Shown here: piece after piece, positions 1 through 8,307 of the stretch | How positions within the stretch are numbered: the stretch's first letter is position 1 | Layout of the letters: the number at the start of each line of letters is the position of its first letter | Source: Bdellovibrionota bacterium | GTDB lineage: Bacteria > Bdellovibrionota_C > UBA2361 > JBGSMV01 | Direction: 5' to 3' | Length of the DNA: 40,490 bases | NCBI GenBank assembly: GCA_041739995.1 | Contig: JBGSMV010000077.1 | Location: 1 to 40,490, forward strand | Translations under genes and position numbers: made by a program | The notes under the pieces: generated by a model | The model's database searches: none | The model's input: the letters and a program-made list of their open reading frames with translations, nothing else | What the model was told of the DNA's origin: nothing

Positions 1-11
1 CGAAAAAGACC

Positions 12-80
12 GGATAACACACGGGCCGACGCGGACACCAATCGCTGCCCGATTGGTGCCGGTCGCCCTAGCCGTTATCC
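12..80 (+). mobile_element. attC-like recombination site (attC-0), 69 bp
   Basis: GGATAAC (12-18) and GTTATCC (74-80) are complementary. Inner arms GGGC[C]GAC[G]CGG[A]CACCAATCG / CGATTGGTG-CCG-GTC-GCCC carry unpaired bases like attC extrahelical bases, and the spacers next to the cores are short and unpaired. Confidence 0.85.
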
Positions 81-98
81 GTAGGAGTCAGAATCATC

Positions 99-557
99 AT
101 GGTGCAACGAATTCTAGTTATCATTGTGTGCCTAGTGATGCTGGCGTCTCCTCTTCATGCTGAACACCCAGATCCGGAAGGGCTGCTTCGACTAGACATA
201 ATGAGTCTATTGCTGAAGGGTGATCGGGAAGCCGCTATTCTGAAAATCACTAAATTTCTTGCCGATAATCCCAACCATCCCCAAAGAGGCGAGTTTCTTG
301 CAAGGCGAGGCACCTTGAGAGTCGACTCGGGTGATAATTCCGGGGGGTCGGAAGATCTTCGAAGTGCGATACCGCTACTTGATCGTGCAATTGCGGCTGA
401 CCCGAAGAACGACAGTCTTATATACATCCGAGCGCGGGCGCGACAGGCGAGTAACGATCGCGACGGCGCCATGGCCGACTTTCGGCGGGCTTTGGAACTT
501 AAGCCGGAAAGTGGTGAATACAAACTCGGCCTCATGTTAGCCGAGCAAGGGCGATGA
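99..557 (+). CDS. Gene cassette 1: secreted tetratricopeptide-repeat protein
   Basis: AGGAG RBS at 83-87; N-terminal signal peptide; TPR-like motifs (RAIAADPKN..YIRARARQ..GAMADFRRALELKP); lies between two attC sites. Confidence 0.85.
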   Translation: MVQRILVIIVCLVMLASPLHAEHPDPEGLLRLDIMSLLLKGDREAAILKITKFLADNPNHPQRGEFLARRGTLRVDSGDNSGGSEDLRSAIPLLDRAIAADPKNDSLIYIRARARQASNDRDGAMADFRRALELKPESGEYKLGLMLAEQGR

Positions 558-573
558 GAGAAGGGTCGCCTAC

Positions 574-671
574 GGATAACACACCGCTCCACCAGATCTA
601 CGCCCCGTAGAGTAGTAGCTAATTTGATCGTATGATGTGGGGTGCAAACTGGAGAGCATTTGCCGTTATCC
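574..671 (+). mobile_element. attC-like site (attC-1), 98 bp
   Basis: GGATAAC (574-580) ... GTTATCC (665-671). Arms GCTCCACCAG / CTGGAGAGC and TCTACGCCCC / GGGGTGCAAA pair better on the bottom strand, where C.A mismatches become G.T pairs. Confidence 0.85.
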
Positions 672-682
672 TTCTTTACTGA

Positions 683-1297
683 ATGACCATTATGTCGGCA
701 CCACGACCAATACTCTTGGATATCTCTGTGCAGTTTGAAAGCGAACGTCTGTTCATTCGCGCGCCTCAACAAGGAGATGGAGCTAGAGTCAATGAAGCAA
801 TTCTTGAGTCTTTTGAAGAATTGAACAGATGGATGCCGTGGGCGAAAGAGAAGCCTACTCCAGCTGATTCGGAAGAGCAGTGCCGGATCTCTCAAGCCAA
901 GTTTATTGCTAGAGAGGATCTCCAGTTACTGATATTCCATAAAAGCTCGGGGGATTTTATCGGAGCTAGCGGCCTCCATCGTTTCGACTGGAGCGTCCCA
1001 AGGTTCGAAATCGGATACTGGTGTCGAACGAAAAGAACCGGATCGGGCTTTATTTCTGAAGCGGTCGCTCGAATAGCTCGGTTTGCTTTCGAGGAACTCC
1101 GGGCAAAAAGGGTTGAAATCTACTGTGACTCAAAGAATACAAGGAGCCTTAGCGTTCCGGAGCGACTGGGGTTCCATCTGGACGGAGTTTTGAGAAACCA
1201 CTGTAGAGACCCACACGGAGATCTGCGGGATACAAGAGTATATTCAATTATAAGTTTGGCTGACCTGAAGGATAACAAAGAAGCTCAGAGGAGCTAA
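683..1297 (+). CDS. Gene cassette 2: GNAT N-acetyltransferase, RimJ/RimL family
   Basis: Motifs ERLFIR, L.RWMPW, FEIGYW..GSGFISEA and N.RS..VPERLGF.L.G.LR. The 3' end overlaps attC-2. Confidence 0.92.
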   Translation: MTIMSAPRPILLDISVQFESERLFIRAPQQGDGARVNEAILESFEELNRWMPWAKEKPTPADSEEQCRISQAKFIAREDLQLLIFHKSSGDFIGASGLHRFDWSVPRFEIGYWCRTKRTGSGFISEAVARIARFAFEELRAKRVEIYCDSKNTRSLSVPERLGFHLDGVLRNHCRDPHGDLRDTRVYSIISLADLKDNKEAQRS

Positions 1298-1322
1298 CGC
1301 CCGCTGGCTTACGCCGTTATCG
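1270..1322 (+). mobile_element. Very short attC-like site (attC-2), 53 bp
   Basis: GGATAAC (1270-1276) ... GTTATCG (1316-1322). Arms AAGC[T]CAG-A-GG[A]GC / GC-CC-G-CTG-GCTT enclose a TAAC loop. Confidence 0.7.
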
Positions 1323-1332
1323 CTCTCGTGAC

Positions 1333-1728
1333 ATGGCAGATATGCAGCAGGACAAGAAGTTCATGGATGCGGTTATCGGCGCTTTGATGAGCGATAGAGG
1401 AGTATCCCAGCCTCTGTACTGTTCAGAGATTACTTGCGAGCAGGATGGAGAACGCATGTCCGACGTACTTCCATTGATTTACATATGGAACGAGGACCCC
1501 AAACGTGGCACCTGCTCAATTTCGATCAATGGACCAATAGTAGGAGAGATCTTGGAAGCCTACCTGCCACGCTCCGCCCCTGAGTTCCCTGTATTGCGAG
1601 ATAAAATTATTGAGGTGATTCGAGAAACGTGGCCTCCTACTATCATGGCGACGTGTGAGAGGGCTGGGACCCTTCCTAGTGTCGTATTCTCCAAAGAAGC
1701 CTACCTTCAAATCTCCAAGGGGAGGTAG
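1333..1728 (+). CDS. Gene cassette 3: hypothetical protein
   Basis: 131-aa ORF that fills the space between GTTATCG (1316) and CGATAAC (1731); no family recognised. Confidence 0.75.
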   Translation: MADMQQDKKFMDAVIGALMSDRGVSQPLYCSEITCEQDGERMSDVLPLIYIWNEDPKRGTCSISINGPIVGEILEAYLPRSAPEFPVLRDKIIEVIRETWPPTIMATCERAGTLPSVVFSKEAYLQISKGR

Positions 1729-1730
1729 GG

Positions 1731-1756
1731 CGATAACAAGCCGCCCCACCAGATTG
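1731..1756 (+). mobile_element. Left half of a truncated attC (attC-3)
   Basis: CGATAAC-AAGCCGCCCCACCAGAT closely resembles the left half of attC-1 (GGATAAC-ACACCGCTCCACCAGAT). No properly spaced right arm was found. Confidence 0.55.
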
Positions 1757-2318
1757 GGCACATCCGTCACGTTAGTTGACACCTGAACATTCCAAATTTA
1801 AGGAGCTGAGTTGGGCTAAGACCACTAGGGGTAAGCTGCTCATGCGGTGCATATTGCTGGTGACTCGCTTCTCGTAGTCCGTCTCTAGACACACAGACTG
1901 AAAGCTTTTCAACTTCAATCGCTGCCTGTGCGCTCCGCTAAGGCGACTCGATGCTCATAGACTTTGCACAAATCTTTAATCGGAGGTTCTAGGTGTAACC
2001 TGCCACGTCATATCTGTGTCAAACTAATTCTCCACAATGGGCTCAGGCTGCGAAGCGTTACAATTAGATTGTCTTACTGAATTCTTTCCTTTCAAACCGT
2101 TTGTACTTGAGAAGGGAATGTTTCAGATCCTTCTGCATGATCGCGATCATATCTTCACGCGGCCATCTCCTTGATACTCAATGTCATCAAATCCACCCGG
2201 GAGAGGAGATTTTTTCTTGAGGCGAAGGCCTCAGCATCAGTGTCTAAGGGGCAAGCAGGCACTTCAGCACAAAAAAGCAGGTCTTCGTTATTAACTGTTT
2301 TTGATTAAGGAGAAAAAT

Positions 2319-2747
2319 ATGGAAAACAAGGAACGCATTCGAGAAGGAGCTAAGAACGGAATTTCGTTAGCGGCAAATCAGATGGATGAGTCCGTGGACG
2401 CTACTATCGATGAAGCCAGAGCTCTCAGCTCTCGAGTCGCCGATAAGGCACGAAAGTTCGGCAATGAGGTTGCAAACAAGGCGGACGAGACTATTTCTTC
2501 TGCTGGTCACAAAATAAATGATTTGGCGGGCACTGTGCGTAGAAACTTGCCCACTGATGGAGTGGTCGGTTCTGCGGCGGGCGCAGTGGCCGATTCGTTG
2601 GAGTCAGGCGGGAAATACCTAGAGAGCCATGACCTAGAGAGCATGGGGAAGGATACGGCTGCCTTAGTACGAAAGTATCCATTGTACTCGCTGGGAGTCG
2701 GCCTGTTGGTAGGTGCTCTCGTGGGTAAGATGCTGCCCCGTCGATAG
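2319..2747 (+). CDS. DUF883/ElaB/YqjD-like tail-anchored protein
   Basis: AAGGAG RBS before ATG 2319; Ala/Lys/Asp-rich helical body; C-terminal VRKYPLYSLGVGLLVGALVGKMLPRR anchor. Confidence 0.75.
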   Translation: MENKERIREGAKNGISLAANQMDESVDATIDEARALSSRVADKARKFGNEVANKADETISSAGHKINDLAGTVRRNLPTDGVVGSAAGAVADSLESGGKYLESHDLESMGKDTAALVRKYPLYSLGVGLLVGALVGKMLPRR

Positions 2748-2824
2748 GGAGCTCGGTCGCCACAGCCCCATTCGCTAAAGACCGAGGGTGTCTCTAGGAG
2801 TCCAAGGTCGTTAGGAAAATCGAT

Positions 2825-3229
2825 ATGCTTCATGCGATGAAGAATGAAATACAGTCAACGATTGCCCCATACATCGGGGCAATCGTTGATGATGTGGTGA
2901 CGCTTGGTCGGCAAGAGTTAGCACTATTGAAATCCGAGGCACGGGAAGAGCTGGATAAGGTTAGGCGTGCAGCGTGGTCTTTTGCATTTGCCGTAGGCTT
3001 GGGAACCGCTTCGACGCTCTTGTTCTCAATGGCGCTCGTGACTGCTCTGACTCAGTACGTCCCTGAGGTTCCCGTATGGGGGTGGTACCTAGTCGTTGCA
3101 GGTGTGGTATCGCTCGCAGGGTTTATATTTCTCAGAAGAGCGAAAGTGTTGGCCTCCTCCGTGGCGATGCCTACACAAAACAAGGATTCAAAAAAGGAGA
3201 ATTCACTATGGAAGCAGCACGATGCGTAG
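2825..3229 (+). CDS. Phage-holin-like (DUF1469/YqjE-type) membrane protein
   Basis: DDV.TL.RQELALLKSE.REE motif followed by two TM helices; sits in the usual triad position. Confidence 0.8.
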   Translation: MLHAMKNEIQSTIAPYIGAIVDDVVTLGRQELALLKSEAREELDKVRRAAWSFAFAVGLGTASTLLFSMALVTALTQYVPEVPVWGWYLVVAGVVSLAGFIFLRRAKVLASSVAMPTQNKDSKKENSLWKQHDA

Positions 3230-3885
3230 ATCGGCCCTCTGACCAAATAAGGCAAGATATCGAACAAACGAAGAGCGCACTGCAAGATCATTTGCGGCTT
3301 CTGGAGACAGAAGTACGCAGACAGGTCGATGACGTTAAGGACGCAGTGGGAGAAACGGTTGAATCGGTTAAGGACAGTTTGGACGTTCGTGAGCATGTTC
3401 GTCGTCACCCTAAGGTATCCTTCGGTCTTGCTGCATTAGCAGGGGTTATAATTTCTAAGGCGTTGGAAGAGCCACGAAGGCACGCGCAACGGCAAGGGGG
3501 TGCAGGAACTAAATTGGCGTCAGAGCCAAGAACTGCGCATGCTCCAGCGGGAGAGGTCAGTGAATCAAGAGCTCCAGGTGGAGCTTCAAAGTTCTTCAGC
3601 CAAATCGGGGGCCATTTTGAGCACGAGATCCACCAGCTTTCTGGTATTGCAATTGGGCTCCTATTTAGTGCCGCAAAGAACTGGATACAGAAGGCCAGAG
3701 TCGAGTCGCCTGAGGCACGCCAGAAGGAGAGCCACAAGGACAGGTTGTCTTCTCAGATTTCTCAGTCGCCCCACGTTAAGGTCCACGGTTCTGGTCCCTA
3801 TGCTCCTACGCCACAAGGGGGTGGGCGCACCTCGCAAAATGGGTTCAACAGAAATGTTTCACCGCGAGCGTCGTCTTGGCTCTAG
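3208..3885 (+). CDS. DUF3618-domain protein
   Basis: AAGGAG RBS before ATG 3208; DQIRQDIEQTKSAL motif; VRRHP..FGLAALAG anchor. Confidence 0.7.
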   Translation: MEAARCVDRPSDQIRQDIEQTKSALQDHLRLLETEVRRQVDDVKDAVGETVESVKDSLDVREHVRRHPKVSFGLAALAGVIISKALEEPRRHAQRQGGAGTKLASEPRTAHAPAGEVSESRAPGGASKFFSQIGGHFEHEIHQLSGIAIGLLFSAAKNWIQKARVESPEARQKESHKDRLSSQISQSPHVKVHGSGPYAPTPQGGGRTSQNGFNRNVSPRASSWL

Positions 3886-3947
3886 TCAGCTTTCTGTGAT
3901 GCACCAGTTTTCGCATTGTCACTCCGCGTTCAGCAGAAAAGGGAGAG

Positions 3948-5372
3948 CTAAGCTGAGGCGAATAGCTGAGATCGCGCTTTTCCCACACCGTCCCTAGTCA
4001 CGTAGATCGGACGCTTTTCAACTTCAAAGCTATGGTCTGGGGGAATTCCAAGCAAATGGAAGATGGATGCGTGCAAGTCTTCGATGCGAATTTCATCTGT
4101 CACCACCTCGCATGGGCGTTCGTCGCTGGTGCTGCCATACACAAGTCCGCGTTTTACTCCGCCGCCGAACAGCACTGCGCTGCCCGCACCAGTAAAGTGC
4201 TTGTGGAGGCCGTAGTGCCGCATTTCATTGATTCGTTCAGGCACACGTGCTTGCGCCTTTACTTCTACTCCAGCACGTCCTTCAATCATAAGATCGCGGC
4301 TGAATTCGCTCGCAAGAATAATCAAGGTGCGATCCAGCAACCCACGCTCTTCTAGGTCAAGAATGAGGCGCGTTACTGGTCTATCAATCCAGCGCTTCAT
4401 CTCAATGGTTCGCGTGTGCCCGTTATTGTGAGTATCCCAGTTATCAAACTGAACCCACTCAGAAGTGACTTCTATGAAACGTGCACCGACTTCACAAAGA
4501 CGACGCGCTAAGAGGCATCCAAGCCCAAAGCGCCCGGTGTCGTATTCTTCGTAAATGTGCGGAGGTTCGTCCGTAATATCGAATGCACGTGCCGCGGGCG
4601 AGTGTAGCAGTCGGTACGACCCATCAAGGCTACGAAGCATTGATTCCTGATGGAAGGAGCTGGCCGTGCGCCCTGACTCTGATGCTTCTACAAGACGACG
4701 GAAGAATTTATTGCGGTCTTCAAAGCGAGCCGGAGAAACACCTGCGGGAGGGCTCACGTAGCGCCGTGCTTCAATCGCGTCTGGAATAACGAAAGGGCCA
4801 TGCTCTGCGCCGAGATACCCGGCAGTGAGGTAGGCTTTGATTTCTTCGCTGCCGGGAAGCTCAAGTCTTTGCCCGATATGAATGAAAGCGGGAACATCAG
4901 GGTTAATCTGACCGCGCATGTTTGCGATGATGGCTCCAATATGCGGCATCGCGATGGTTTGTGGCGGCACATATCCAGTGTGCCAGTGGTACTGGTGGCG
5001 TGTGTGGAGAATGAAGCCTAAGTCCGCGGCCCGGTATGAACGAATTACCGCTCCTCTATCCATCACGCTTGCCAGCCGCTCCAGGCCGCTTGAGATACGC
5101 AAGCCATCGACCGCAGTGGGAATGGACGGGAAGGTCGCTAATACGCGGTCGGGGTCGAGATCTTTTTCAAAGTCGACGTGTCGCTTGGGATCAAAGGTCT
5201 CCGTGTGTGCCATGCCGCCCGACATCCAGAGCAGAATAACGCGGTCGGCCGCAGGTTTGATTTCTGCGGCTTTCTCTCCGCACCAGGCAGTTCGTGGTGC
5301 CCCAAGAGTGGAGGCTGCAAGTGCGGCGGCACTCAGTTCAGCAAGAAATTTTCGACGTGTAAGCGCTTCCAT
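3948..5372 (-). CDS. DUF1501 family protein with Tat signal
   Basis: TRRKFL twin-arginine signal; motifs ILLWMSGGMAHTETFDPK, FGLGCLLARRLCEVGARFIEV, WDTH, LI.DLEERGLLDRTL and GGGVKRG.VYG.T. Confidence 0.92.
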   Translation of the reverse strand: MEALTRRKFLAELSAAALAASTLGAPRTAWCGEKAAEIKPAADRVILLWMSGGMAHTETFDPKRHVDFEKDLDPDRVLATFPSIPTAVDGLRISSGLERLASVMDRGAVIRSYRAADLGFILHTRHQYHWHTGYVPPQTIAMPHIGAIIANMRGQINPDVPAFIHIGQRLELPGSEEIKAYLTAGYLGAEHGPFVIPDAIEARRYVSPPAGVSPARFEDRNKFFRRLVEASESGRTASSFHQESMLRSLDGSYRLLHSPAARAFDITDEPPHIYEEYDTGRFGLGCLLARRLCEVGARFIEVTSEWVQFDNWDTHNNGHTRTIEMKRWIDRPVTRLILDLEERGLLDRTLIILASEFSRDLMIEGRAGVEVKAQARVPERINEMRHYGLHKHFTGAGSAVLFGGGVKRGLVYGSTSDERPCEVVTDEIRIEDLHASIFHLLGIPPDHSFEVEKRPIYVTRDGVGKARSQLFASA

Positions 5373-5382
5373 CTACTATTAC

Positions 5383-8307
5383 TTAACGCACAAGCTGAAA
5401 TTCGGGAAGGAGCACCATGCTCCAGAGCAAATCCTCAAGCTTTGCCGGCTGCACGGACTGAGTGGAGTTTGCCACCAAAAAAGCTTTAGCCTGTGTAGCT
5501 TCTTCGGGTGTCGGCTCTCGCAAAAGCAGAGCTTTCCACAGATCGTCGACGATATTAGAAGCCGGCTTTCCTGGTACCACCATCGAGAGAGCTGCTTGTT
5601 TCAATAACGCATGAAACTCCTCTCCATTGGTGAGTTCCAGAGCGTCAAGCGTAGTGAGAGTGCTGGGACGTTCTGAAACGATATTGTCCCTCGCCAGTCT
5701 TCCAAGAGCGGTGGCGAACGAAGAGCGGTCCTGAATCGAGGCAGGAAGAGAGAGGTCAGTGAACACTAAGAAACGAAATGAGCGCGCACCTTTGATACTG
5801 TCGGCGGTGGCTTGGAAGCCGACTTCTGCTTGAAAGCGTTTGGCATTAAGGCCTTTCAAACTATAGGCCAGGACAGAAGGGGAACGAGCCGCGATGGCCT
5901 CGCTCTCAGGCTTACCAAGGAAGGTAAGCTCTTTCTTTGGGGCGGTGGGATCAAGGACAAGTGTGGCTCCGTCACCAACCGCAAGGGGCTGAAGGCGAGA
6001 GAGGAGTGTCGTATCGCCAGGTTTGCCCTTGCCACTGCCAGAGGCGCTCAACAACGTGGGCGCTCGCCAAAGCAGGGGAGTTTTGGGAATTCTTCGAGAC
6101 AACAGCGGAATGCCTTCGGGCACGGCCACCAACCACAGAGTCTTTGCACCGGTAATGTCGATGTCGATAGTGGCCGAGGGAGCCGCGCTTGAAATGGCGG
6201 TGGTGTGTGCTTTCGGGGTGTAGGGCGCGGGGAACTTCGCGTCATTAAGGAGACTCAGCCAGCGAATCCACTCTTTCTTCGTCCCCGATTCGGGCGCAGC
6301 GAACACCTCGCGAAGGGTGTCTTCAAACTGTTCGGATTTCATTCGACGCTCAAATCCACCCTTAAACACGGTGACGTTCTTCGCGTCAGACGGAGGCGGT
6401 GATTCGTTGAGGAATTCTCGTTGGTAAATCGAAGAGGTTACGATGACGGTGAGTAAGTGCTTTAAGTCAAAGTCGTTACTTTGCAACTCGAAGGCCAGCG
6501 TTTCGAGAAGCTCTGGACTCCAGGCGGTACCCGAAGCGTCGTCGAGCGAAGCTACGATTCCAGCACCCATCAGTTGAGCCCAGATTCTGTTGGTAATCGC
6601 TTTTGGGAGAAGTCCATTATCTTTGCTAGTCAAAACACTTGCGAGTTGTTGCATACGCTTCTCGCGTGGAAGCGTCTCGTCGATTTTACCGAGTTCAGGA
6701 AAGAAAAATTTAGGTTGAGCGGTCTGCCCGGTAGGAACGTCGCAGCGGTGAGACTCTATCGGTTCTTTGGCAAAGATATTTGCCATGCCGTAGGCGTCGT
6801 CTAGTTTCCACTGGTCGACGAAGCTGTCGTGACACGAAGTGCACTTTAGATTCACGGCCATAAAAGCTTGCGCGATGTTCTGCGCTGCCTGCATTTCCGG
6901 ACGCTCGTTCGGATTGACCGCGCCACGCCACACTATGCCCTTCACGAAACCAGACGAGGCTTCGCTCGGGTTCACTAGCTCCTTGACCATACGAGTGTAT
7001 GAGTAGTTCTGAAGCAGCGCGGAAAAAAGCCAAGAGGTGATGTCTTTTCGCCCGCGGTCAACGTAGCCCGCACCGGTGTAGTCGTTTCTGAGAAGATCAT
7101 TCCAGAAAGAGATCCAATTAATGGCGTAATCGAGGTCACGAGCAAGAAGGTCGCGCACAAGAGTGACACGTTTATCGGGCTCAGAGGATGCGACGAACTC
7201 TTCAATCTGCTCGAAACTTGGGTAGTGCCCAACTAGATCAAGGCTCACTCGGCGCATGAAGGTGCGATCATCAATCAGCTTAGGAAGCTCTAGGGCATTC
7301 TTACGAAAGTAGGGGGCAAGTACTCGGTCTACCGGATTGGTTTGAGGAGTTTCCGCCGAGACTTCAATTACATGACTGCGATTAAGGCCAAGTACCGGCT
7401 TTTCAGAGCGCTGATAGGCGTCAGTTGCGCTGGTACCCCATATTGCACCTTGGTCCACCCAGGTGCGAATCAGGGCAATCTCTTGGGTGGTGAGCCTGCG
7501 GCCCTTGTTGGGCATGATCTTGTCAGGATCAAGTCCGGACACCAGTTCAACCAAATGACTCTTCGCTCCGTTGCCGGGGGAAATAGCCGCTCCGGTCTCT
7601 CCTCCTCGAAGCAGCTCATCACGAGTGTCCATTCGGAAACCGCCCTTGGCTTTCCCCCCTAAATGGCACTTCGCGCAGGAATTCTGAATGATTGGATGGA
7701 TATGAGTGTCATAGTCGACCTTTTGGTTCAGTGCGGCCGGAACTACTCCGTCAGGTGCTGCCTCGATTGTTCCCGCAGCTGAAGATTCTCTGTCGGCCAA
7801 GGAAGCGCGTGCGTCTTCTCGATCGAGCGCGGCGAAGCTAAATAAATCATCTCCATGCACCAGGGTGCCGCCCGTGTGTCCCACCAGTCCGGTCACGAGC
7901 ATGCATACGGCGAGTAGTGCCCGGTAGATCTTTCCCCCGCTGTGGCGGCGGCTAGTCCAGCGAGCACAGAGCCAACACAGCAACACAAAGGAGGTGAGGG
8001 TGACACCGCCCCAGCGATGAATGAAGAGAGTCTCGGCCGCGTCGCCATGGAATTCTTCGATGCCCGCCAAGAGCCAACCACTAGAGCCCGCAACCACACA
8101 CGAAAGGGCGGCAAAGGAGAGGCAAAAGAAAGCAACTGGGTCTGGGGTGGCGGAGAAGGGGGAGGTTCTCGATTCTAAACGGGCTCGTCGGAAGGCGAGT
8201 ACTTCAGCCACGACCGCCGCGAATACTAAAGCGATGGGAAAATGAACGAAGATCGGGTGCAGCCGAGCGACAAACGGAAGAAGGTACTGAAATAAAACGT
8301 CACTCAC
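5383..8307 (-). CDS. PSD1/PSCyt (DUF1549 + DUF1553) protein with an N-terminal DUF2231-like membrane domain and a Planctomycete cytochrome c domain
   Basis: LHPIFVHFPIAL (DUF2231-like); CAKCH and CTSCH haem-type motifs; DDRTFMRRVSLDLVG; NRIWAQLMGAGIV; DLKHLL..IVTSSIYQR; canonical partner of DUF1501. Confidence 0.9.
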   Translation of the reverse strand: MSDVLFQYLLPFVARLHPIFVHFPIALVFAAVVAEVLAFRRARLESRTSPFSATPDPVAFFCLSFAALSCVVAGSSGWLLAGIEEFHGDAAETLFIHRWGGVTLTSFVLLCWLCARWTSRRHSGGKIYRALLAVCMLVTGLVGHTGGTLVHGDDLFSFAALDREDARASLADRESSAAGTIEAAPDGVVPAALNQKVDYDTHIHPIIQNSCAKCHLGGKAKGGFRMDTRDELLRGGETGAAISPGNGAKSHLVELVSGLDPDKIMPNKGRRLTTQEIALIRTWVDQGAIWGTSATDAYQRSEKPVLGLNRSHVIEVSAETPQTNPVDRVLAPYFRKNALELPKLIDDRTFMRRVSLDLVGHYPSFEQIEEFVASSEPDKRVTLVRDLLARDLDYAINWISFWNDLLRNDYTGAGYVDRGRKDITSWLFSALLQNYSYTRMVKELVNPSEASSGFVKGIVWRGAVNPNERPEMQAAQNIAQAFMAVNLKCTSCHDSFVDQWKLDDAYGMANIFAKEPIESHRCDVPTGQTAQPKFFFPELGKIDETLPREKRMQQLASVLTSKDNGLLPKAITNRIWAQLMGAGIVASLDDASGTAWSPELLETLAFELQSNDFDLKHLLTVIVTSSIYQREFLNESPPPSDAKNVTVFKGGFERRMKSEQFEDTLREVFAAPESGTKKEWIRWLSLLNDAKFPAPYTPKAHTTAISSAAPSATIDIDITGAKTLWLVAVPEGIPLLSRRIPKTPLLWRAPTLLSASGSGKGKPGDTTLLSRLQPLAVGDGATLVLDPTAPKKELTFLGKPESEAIAARSPSVLAYSLKGLNAKRFQAEVGFQATADSIKGARSFRFLVFTDLSLPASIQDRSSFATALGRLARDNIVSERPSTLTTLDALELTNGEEFHALLKQAALSMVVPGKPASNIVDDLWKALLLREPTPEEATQAKAFLVANSTQSVQPAKLEDLLWSMVLLPEFQLVR

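Follow-up and report, generated by a model that had tools for sequence, protein, structure and literature searches.

A putative sedentary chromosomal integron of five cassettes in a Bdellovibrionota genome, reassembled across a contig break

Background

The closest described counterparts of the array reported here are the superintegron of Vibrio cholerae and the mobile integrons of classes 1 to 5. Our array lies at the start of the window, by which we mean the whole stretch of DNA analysed, namely the first 40,490 bases of contig C34 (JBGSMV010000077.1) in assembly GCA_041739995.1 of a Bdellovibrionota bacterium (81 contigs, 3.81 Mb, 52.4% G+C, 91% complete). In the superintegron a divergent integrase gene, intI, stands by the attachment site attI, and the co-oriented cassettes hold single, mostly unannotatable genes whose recombination sites, attC, are similar in sequence and length within the lineage. 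All of these traits recur in our array, including an attC type of about 100 bases, and its integrase (IntI) aligns end to end with VchIntIA of V. cholerae. The V. cholerae repeats (VCRs) also begin TAACAAAC. The array differs from the superintegron in its phylum, in mixing attC lengths of 53-98 bases, in the nucleotides flanking its R-box triplets (GNAT/ATNC) and in size, with five cassettes against up to 179 in V. cholerae (PMC5027507, in the portion of that paper drawn on here). With mobile integrons it has in common the three-part platform, the cassette logic, stop codons inside the R'' box in two cassettes and a cassette for a GNAT acetyltransferase. Unlike them, it has a chromosomal setting between queA-tgt and ordinary genes, attC sites similar to one another, no identified resistance gene and an IntI that falls below the cut-off of the class 1-type model. 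Seen from the window alone, it looks like a cluster of attC sites lacking an integron integrase (CALIN), as treated in the portion of Cury et al. (2016, PMC4889954) used here, but unlike a CALIN it is continuous with attI and intI.

We put the probability at roughly 0.93 that window bases 1 to about 1830 are the three distal cassettes, and the end of a further one, of a complete sedentary chromosomal integron of five cassettes whose platform lies on the adjoining contig; the integron is probably sedentary. By the textbook mechanism, IntI would bind the folded bottom strand of attC, recognising the R and L boxes together with extra bases near positions 16 and 23 of the R''/L'' arm, and would cut within the AAC triplet, which on the top strand places the cut between G and TT. 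Recombination of attC with attC would then excise cassettes as circles, and recombination of attI with attC would insert them next to the integrase gene. This view of how integrons work is left unchanged by our finding. We infer that the sites recombine, that a promoter near attI drives expression, and any regulation. The data described below show the integrase gene, the sites and how they are built, where each cassette begins and ends, and that relatives differ in their cassettes. We found no paper describing integrons in Bdellovibrionota among listings and abstracts that gave only resistome and microbiome surveys, and the supplements of large integron surveys may list such genomes. The locus adds a well-resolved complete chromosomal integron for Bdellovibrionota.

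The array continues into an integron platform

Three co-oriented open reading frames (ORFs), at 99-557, 683-1297 and 1333-1728 of the window, are separated by imperfect hairpins. The first-pass annotation had described these single genes and hairpins, the latter starting with SGATAAC and ending, where complete, with GCC-GTTATCS, and motif counts bear it out. The sequence GCCGTTATC occurs three times in the window (at 71, 662 and 1313, all on the plus strand) against 0.29 expected, a count reached by 0 of 100 shuffles, while SGATAACA occurs six times against 1.59 expected, four of them on the plus strand at 12, 574, 1270 and 1731.

The window begins at a contig end. An end-overlap script run on all contigs showed that the reverse complement of contig C74 shares an exact 141-base overlap with the window start, and C74 is the only contig of the genome to carry that sequence. 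Read in the orientation of the window, C74 presents queA, tgt, an ORF of 379 residues on the opposite strand (L001 1542..2681), a spacer of 236 bases, an ORF of 186 residues, a site TATAAC...GCCGTTATCC, an ORF of 154 residues and then window base 1. The start codon of the 379-residue ORF, which is intI, lies 1,401 bases upstream of that base, and the crossover G of attI is 236 bases from the intI start. The earlier statement that no integrase is in view therefore holds for the window but fails beyond it; its proposal of a chromosomal integron upstream of base 1 was right, with intI, attI and two cassettes on C74, and its alternative, a CALIN, has to be given up in view of the distance to intI.

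A version of that alternative deserves to be weighed all the same: the array could be a CALIN if the C74 integrase belonged elsewhere and the overlap were a false join induced by a repeat. Besides the lack of an integrase in the window itself, the contigs break exactly at the attC of 12-80, the same type of attC has other flanks in public sequencing runs and hence is a repeat in the population, and the genome does possess a true CALIN, on contig C17. Nevertheless we regard the false join as very improbable, because C74 alone already contains attI, two cassettes, the entire attC of 12-80 and 61 bases from the start of cassette 3, the final 17 bases of the cassette-2 ORF are present on C34 by itself, and the overlap occurs in no other contig. 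End overlaps of 141 bases are recurrent in the assembly (16 directed overlaps listed, contig pairs counted both ways), and this marks such overlaps as a k-mer artefact of the assembler. Where a contig end cuts an array in a metagenome assembly, overlaps of this kind allow the pieces to be rejoined.

The public runs also illustrate how the break may have come about. Four runs of one study contain contigs that are identical to most of window 1-3000 and bridge the attC sites at 574-671 (again without differences) and 1270-1322. Other contigs of the same runs carry a site like the attC of cassette 2 (3-4 differences) whose surroundings are unrelated to the window upstream of base 13 and beyond base 70 or 80; these breakpoints are the R'' and R' boxes of the site. 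The alternative contexts hint at cassette reshuffling or at strain variation, either of which would fit, and they probably explain why the assembly broke at this attC.

Integrase, attI and chromosomal setting

The 379-residue protein matches the integron integrase model TIGR02249 with 441.2 bits (cut-off 265) over positions 1-315 of 315, and VchIntIA (PDB 2A3V) with E = 4.4e-97 (residues 10-322 against 6-319). The latter alignment takes in the integron-specific segment ALKRKYPNA...RRHH as well as the conserved GLRL, HxxR, GH and IYTHV motifs. We identify the protein as an integron integrase with the additional segment specific to IntI. Its reading frame is intact and transcribed divergently from the array, and it is the sole integron integrase gene in the genome. 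The nearest named IntI is 76% identical and resides on JBIKWF010000195.1, a contig of a metagenome-assembled genome labelled Bdellovibrionota, which is identical to the contig of a genome of the same genus included in our survey.

Up to ...CTAATATGTTA, the spacer between intI and attI shares 78% identity with its counterpart in the same-genus genome, and the likeness fades about a dozen bases further on. From the GTT of attI onwards, the 5' end of cassette 1 pairs with the reverse complement of its own R'' over 11 bases. These two features mark a putative attI beside intI, with the first cassette starting at G/TT. A terminator scan of the attI region found nothing.

It could be asked whether the integron is instead a mobile one, carried by a transposon, plasmid or other element and binned with this genome by chance. 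Its position does seem to differ among related genomes, tgt and intI being on separate contigs in 5 of the 5 relatives examined, and outside the genus the next IntI relatives all come from other phyla at no more than 54% identity. The genomic context speaks for the chromosome, however: intI abuts queA-tgt on a contig of 73.8 kb, the array is followed by 38 kb of ordinary chromosomal genes, and there is no transposase in the ORF lists of the two flanks. Moreover, the class 1-type equivalog model NF011946 gives IntI 333.8 bits, below its cut-off of 435, and the attC sites belong to a homogeneous family common to the same-genus genome, such homogeneity being typical of sedentary integrons according to the portion of PMC5027507 consulted. 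A mobile integron is in our judgement even more improbable than a false join.

Structure of the attC sites

The attC of cassette 2 (12..80, plus strand) has its R'' box, GGATAAC, at 12-18 and its R' box, GTTATCC, at 74-80, with the crossover predicted between G74 and T75. The attC of cassette 3 (574..671, plus strand; R'' 574-580, R' 665-671) is of a long type of about 100 bases, which alignments also find in the sister genome and at a solitary site on contig C79. That of cassette 4 (1270..1322, plus strand; R'' GGATAAC 1270-1276, R' GTTATCG 1316-1322) is of a short type of 53 bases. On the plus strand the covariance model R1 scores these three complete sites, in the order of their scores, with 96.1 bits (574-671), 56.6 bits (12-80; E = 5e-13, reverse strand 6.4 bits) and 46.1 bits (1270-1322; E = 2e-10), and on the minus strand it gives no more than 9.3 bits. 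Rfam gave no match at E <= 1 in window 1-2400 or in C74 66-4010.

Cassette logic provides a further line of evidence. A crossover at G/TT predicts that the bases after GTT match the R'' arm of the cassette they open, and in all five cassettes they do: the reverse complement of the R'' arm agrees with the 5' end of its own cassette over 11, 9, 12, 10 and 8 bases in cassettes 1-5, compared with 5, 8, 7 and 6 bases for the 5' end of the downstream neighbour. The site at 1270 ends in GTTATCG because its TTATCG half belongs to cassette 5, where it pairs with the CGATAAC at 1731.

The folding of the sites agrees with this picture to different degrees. The stretch 10-82 folds with -28.0 kcal/mol on the bottom strand (z = -6.0) against -25.5 kcal/mol on the top strand, in keeping with the bottom-strand bias noticed for this site in the first-pass annotation. 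Energy alone is convincing for this first site only; the motif statistics confirm the observation. What sets the sites apart from chance is their covariation, not their energy. We aligned seven sites, three of them from the same-genus genome and the other four being the complete ones of the array. AACA and GCCGT do not vary in this alignment, and RNAalifold draws an L box of 10 pairs with one bulged base, in which 8 of the 10 pairs have changed on both sides. Across R and L boxes together, 83.9% of the cells are paired, compared with 68.6% in shuffles (0 of 500 reach the value) and 33-46% when the partners are slid.

The extrahelical bases, also noticed earlier, were found on the '' arm where they are expected. 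With positions counted on this arm from the R'' start, the attC of 12-80 has extra top-strand C, G and A at 16, 20 and 24 (G, C and T on the bottom strand). A top-strand C, hence a bottom-strand G, stands unpaired at position 16 in 25 of the 26 distinct sites. When 15 sites were folded under constraint, 13 had an extra '' arm base near position 16 and 13 had one near position 23, the latter including an A (bottom-strand T) in 11. In 12 of the 15 the bottom strand was more stable than the top strand, the differences being small. According to the portion of Nivina et al. (2016, PMC5027507) used here, extra bases lie on the L'' side, usually as G16 and a conserved base at 23 or 24, the bottom strand is favoured, and the VCR2 site has G16, T20 and T24, the same three positions as our attC of 12-80. 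The predicted geometry of the present sites matches this canonical pattern of G16 and T23/24, and from sequence and modelled folds they behave as true attC sites.

Ordinary intergenic palindromes unrelated to integron recombination, such as repetitive extragenic palindromic (REP)-like repeats or terminators, are highly improbable: two of the three sites do have unremarkable folding energies and all occupy the gaps between genes that end and start convergently, a usual place for terminators, but the R1 score is strictly one-stranded, the triplets AAC/GTT are constant, covariation is seen in the L box, whose bulged base keeps a fixed distance, all five cassettes show the match expected of a cassette circle, the sites adjoin intI, and the scans for terminators in the attI region and for Rfam families came back empty.

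How atypical is the core

The first-pass annotation regarded the ATCC/ATCG flanks of the triplets as an atypical core shared by all sites. They do fall outside RYYYAAC/GTTRRRY, but they are not a fixed rule of the family and are less atypical than was claimed. Among 26 distinct R1 matches, R'' reads G(22)-n-A(20)-T(17)-A-A-C and R' reads G-T-T-A(18)-T(19)-n-C(21), where AAC and GTT are each present in 25-26 of the 26 sites. The resulting GTTATnC departs from GTTRRRY at position 5, where 19 of the 26 sites have T. Other R' forms occur in this genome (GTTGTCC, GTTGTGT, GTTATAC, GTTAGCC and GTTACAC), and those of the sister genome include GTTCTCT and GTTATGC. Judged from these sites, GTTATCC is the modal form of a lineage consensus GTTATnC and not a fixed rule. 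In the portions of the two papers used here, the triplet is the only stretch conserved in all attC sites (PMC5027507) and AAC/GTT is more conserved than the remainder (PMC4889954). Since the triplet is taken there as the conserved part, we regard RYYYAAC/GTTRRRY as a consensus and not as a trait that defines attC, and we read the deviation as a mild preference of the lineage; the departure from GTTRRRY should not be taken as a new type of site.

Cassettes of the array

Each of the five cassettes contains one ORF in one common orientation, and cassettes 1-4 measure 655, 583, 591 and 651 bases. Stop codons fall within R'' in cassettes 1 and 2 and within the attC in cassette 4. Cassette 2 encodes 154 residues, and only the last 17 bases of its ORF are in the window (1..17, plus strand; the remainder is L001 589..125 on the minus strand of C74), ending with a TAA stop at 15-17 inside R''. 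Cassette 3 (75-665) carries at 99..557 (plus strand) a gene for a TPR-repeat protein of 152 residues with a hydrophobic N-terminus (Pfam TPR_2, TPR_19 and TPR_14). Cassette 4 (666-1316) carries at 683..1297 (plus strand) a gene for a GNAT protein of 204 residues, of the Acetyltransf_3 or RimJ-RimL-like kind (PF13302, E = 9e-27), with only weak NCBIfam matches below the cut-offs; this ORF terminates within its own attC. Cassette 5 carries at 1333..1728 (plus strand) a gene for a protein of 131 residues that had no match in Pfam, NCBIfam or PADLOC and no usable Atlas hit.

The proteins of cassettes 1, 2 and 5 have no family match, PADLOC found no defence-system match among nine cassette proteins, and no resistance gene was identified, the scores of the GNAT protein with the AAC(6') and BlmB models being far under the cut-offs. 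We claim neither a resistance nor a defence function for the cassettes.

A degenerate terminal attC closes the array (1731..1830, plus strand, the end coordinate being uncertain), as the earlier count of three complete sites and an incomplete fourth had it. Its R'' box, CGATAAC, occupies 1731-1737, and about 20 bases beyond it are homologous to the 5' half of sites of the long type. By alignment and R1, no recognisable L'/R' half is present at 1771-1777 (GTTAGTT) or near 1810-1830, and the stretch 1729-1860 folds with z = +1.5. Attachment sites at the edges of integrons are often without an R' box (Cury et al. 2016, PMC4889954, in the portion used), so that a decayed terminal site is ordinary.

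Observations that weigh against a complete integron

Several observations count against a complete integron running across the contig break. The join is an overlap of the assembler type. We found no read or contig spanning the C74/C34 junction, and window bases 101-300 are covered in only one of the four public runs. Other strains may be the source of the contigs with alternative contexts of the cassette-2 attC, which have 90-95% identity. Of the complete sites, two of three fold like shuffles (z = -1.3 for 572-673 and -1.0 for 1268-1324), and at 574-671 and 1270-1322 the order of the strands is reversed, the bottom strand not being the more stable. The covariation structure was taken from the same seven sequences that it tests, and 7 of the 26 distinct matches behind the base frequencies are the training sites of the model. 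The cores of the window (GGATAAC/CGATAAC with GTTATCC/GTTATCG) do not fit RYYYAAC/GTTRRRY, and the terminal site at 1731 reaches a mere 4.1 bits with R1 (E = 8). A simple scan for one promoter type found 0 sigma-70-like promoters between intI and cassette 1 (L001 1200-1700). Finally, copy numbers are lower bounds in a genome that is 91% complete and in 81 contigs.

Further sites, relatives and cassette turnover

Further hairpins were found both in this genome and in its relatives when the covariance model was applied to them, as the first-pass annotation had suggested it should be. Elsewhere in the genome, R1 detects a solitary site on contig C79 (70.2 bits), four sites on C17, two on C77 and decayed copies on C23 and C52. 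The C17 cluster (L023, 4556-6706) comprises four co-oriented attC sites and runs off the contig end without an integrase, and is therefore a CALIN; its cassettes encode a GNAT protein, a SnoaL-like protein and an unannotated protein, with a gene of the glyoxalase/bleomycin-resistance fold just past the last site. On C79, a solitary cassette (L022, 5030-4227, minus strand) lies downstream of dnaE and consists of an ORF of 197 residues with a signal-peptide-like start followed by the 70-bit attC of the long type. Its 5' junction reads TTAATATG joined to TTATCCC, and the 10-mer TAATATGTTA, which it has in common with attI, occurs only in these two places in 3.8 Mb.

Of the 41 genomes of the order that were sampled, 13 (about one third, the present one among them) have an intI above the cut-off, and the lineage has its own homogeneous attC family. 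In one relative of the same order, the cassette side of intI bears 10 co-oriented sites at E <= 0.01 (12 at E <= 1), while genome G024 and other intI-bearing relatives have few or no R1 matches beside their intI. Either their attC sites are unlike this model or their contigs end too soon.

The cassettes themselves turn over between relatives, and the fixed synteny of the three window genes that the first-pass annotation named as a refutation is not seen. The same-genus genome has a homologous attI, three sites and three other cassettes, and neither the TPR gene of cassette 3 (searched at E <= 1e-5) nor the 131-residue gene of cassette 5 was found in any of 40 relatives. The closest homologue of the GNAT gene is 56% identical and lies in the sister genome (L084, G001:C131, 7519-8118). 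We considered whether this homologue is itself a cassette, and rejected it on finding 0 attC matches on its contig of 12.3 kb with filters off. Kinship between the cassette-1 proteins of this and the sister genome was likewise rejected, the two being unrelated (E = 0.87) though the first 12 or so bases of their cassettes are alike.

Palindromes, a second copy of the attI region and neighbouring genes

Upstream of intI we observed a palindrome of 14 bases, GGTATTnnAATACC (with its conserved flanks, GTGGTATTnnAATACCAC), and a partner GGGTATTAAwTACC, located at 1423-1436 and 1486-1498 of L001 on C74. Elsewhere in the 3.8-Mb genome the pair is found just once (L081, C57, 2707-2755), upstream of an amino-acid permease ORF, and the sister genome has kept it in each of its two attI regions. 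It may be the operator of some regulator. Control by LexA was considered as well and set aside, the palindromes not being seen upstream of the lexA gene of the genome, and we make no claim of SOS control.

The sister genome contains a second copy of the attI and intI-promoter region (L083, G001:C173, 40-480) with an attI-like core, ATATGTTCTCT, and no integrase gene. This copy lies directly beside secF-secD-yajC, an ORF of 246 residues and tgt-queA; in the present genome intI abuts tgt and those sec genes are not between them. It appears doubtful that the lineage keeps several integrase-less landing sites of the attI type, which a single IntI would serve in trans, with the palindromes perhaps acting as a non-LexA operator that controls the integrase; the idea draws on the 10-mer common to attI and the C79 junction, on this second copy and on the palindromes. 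In a genome of the same family (L016, G003:C57, 563-1069), a phage regulatory gene of the ORF6N/Rha type adjoins intI in place of tgt, hinting that the integron of that genome lies in or near a prophage-like region.

Directly past the array, window 2301-8307 begins with an unannotated ORF of 148 residues, followed by a membrane protein of the Phage_holin_3_6 family (2825-3229) and by two large ORFs on the minus strand (3948-5372 and 5383-8307). We take the latter two to resemble the DUF1501/DUF1553 pair that is common in Planctomycetota and would be unexpected in a Bdellovibrionota genome.

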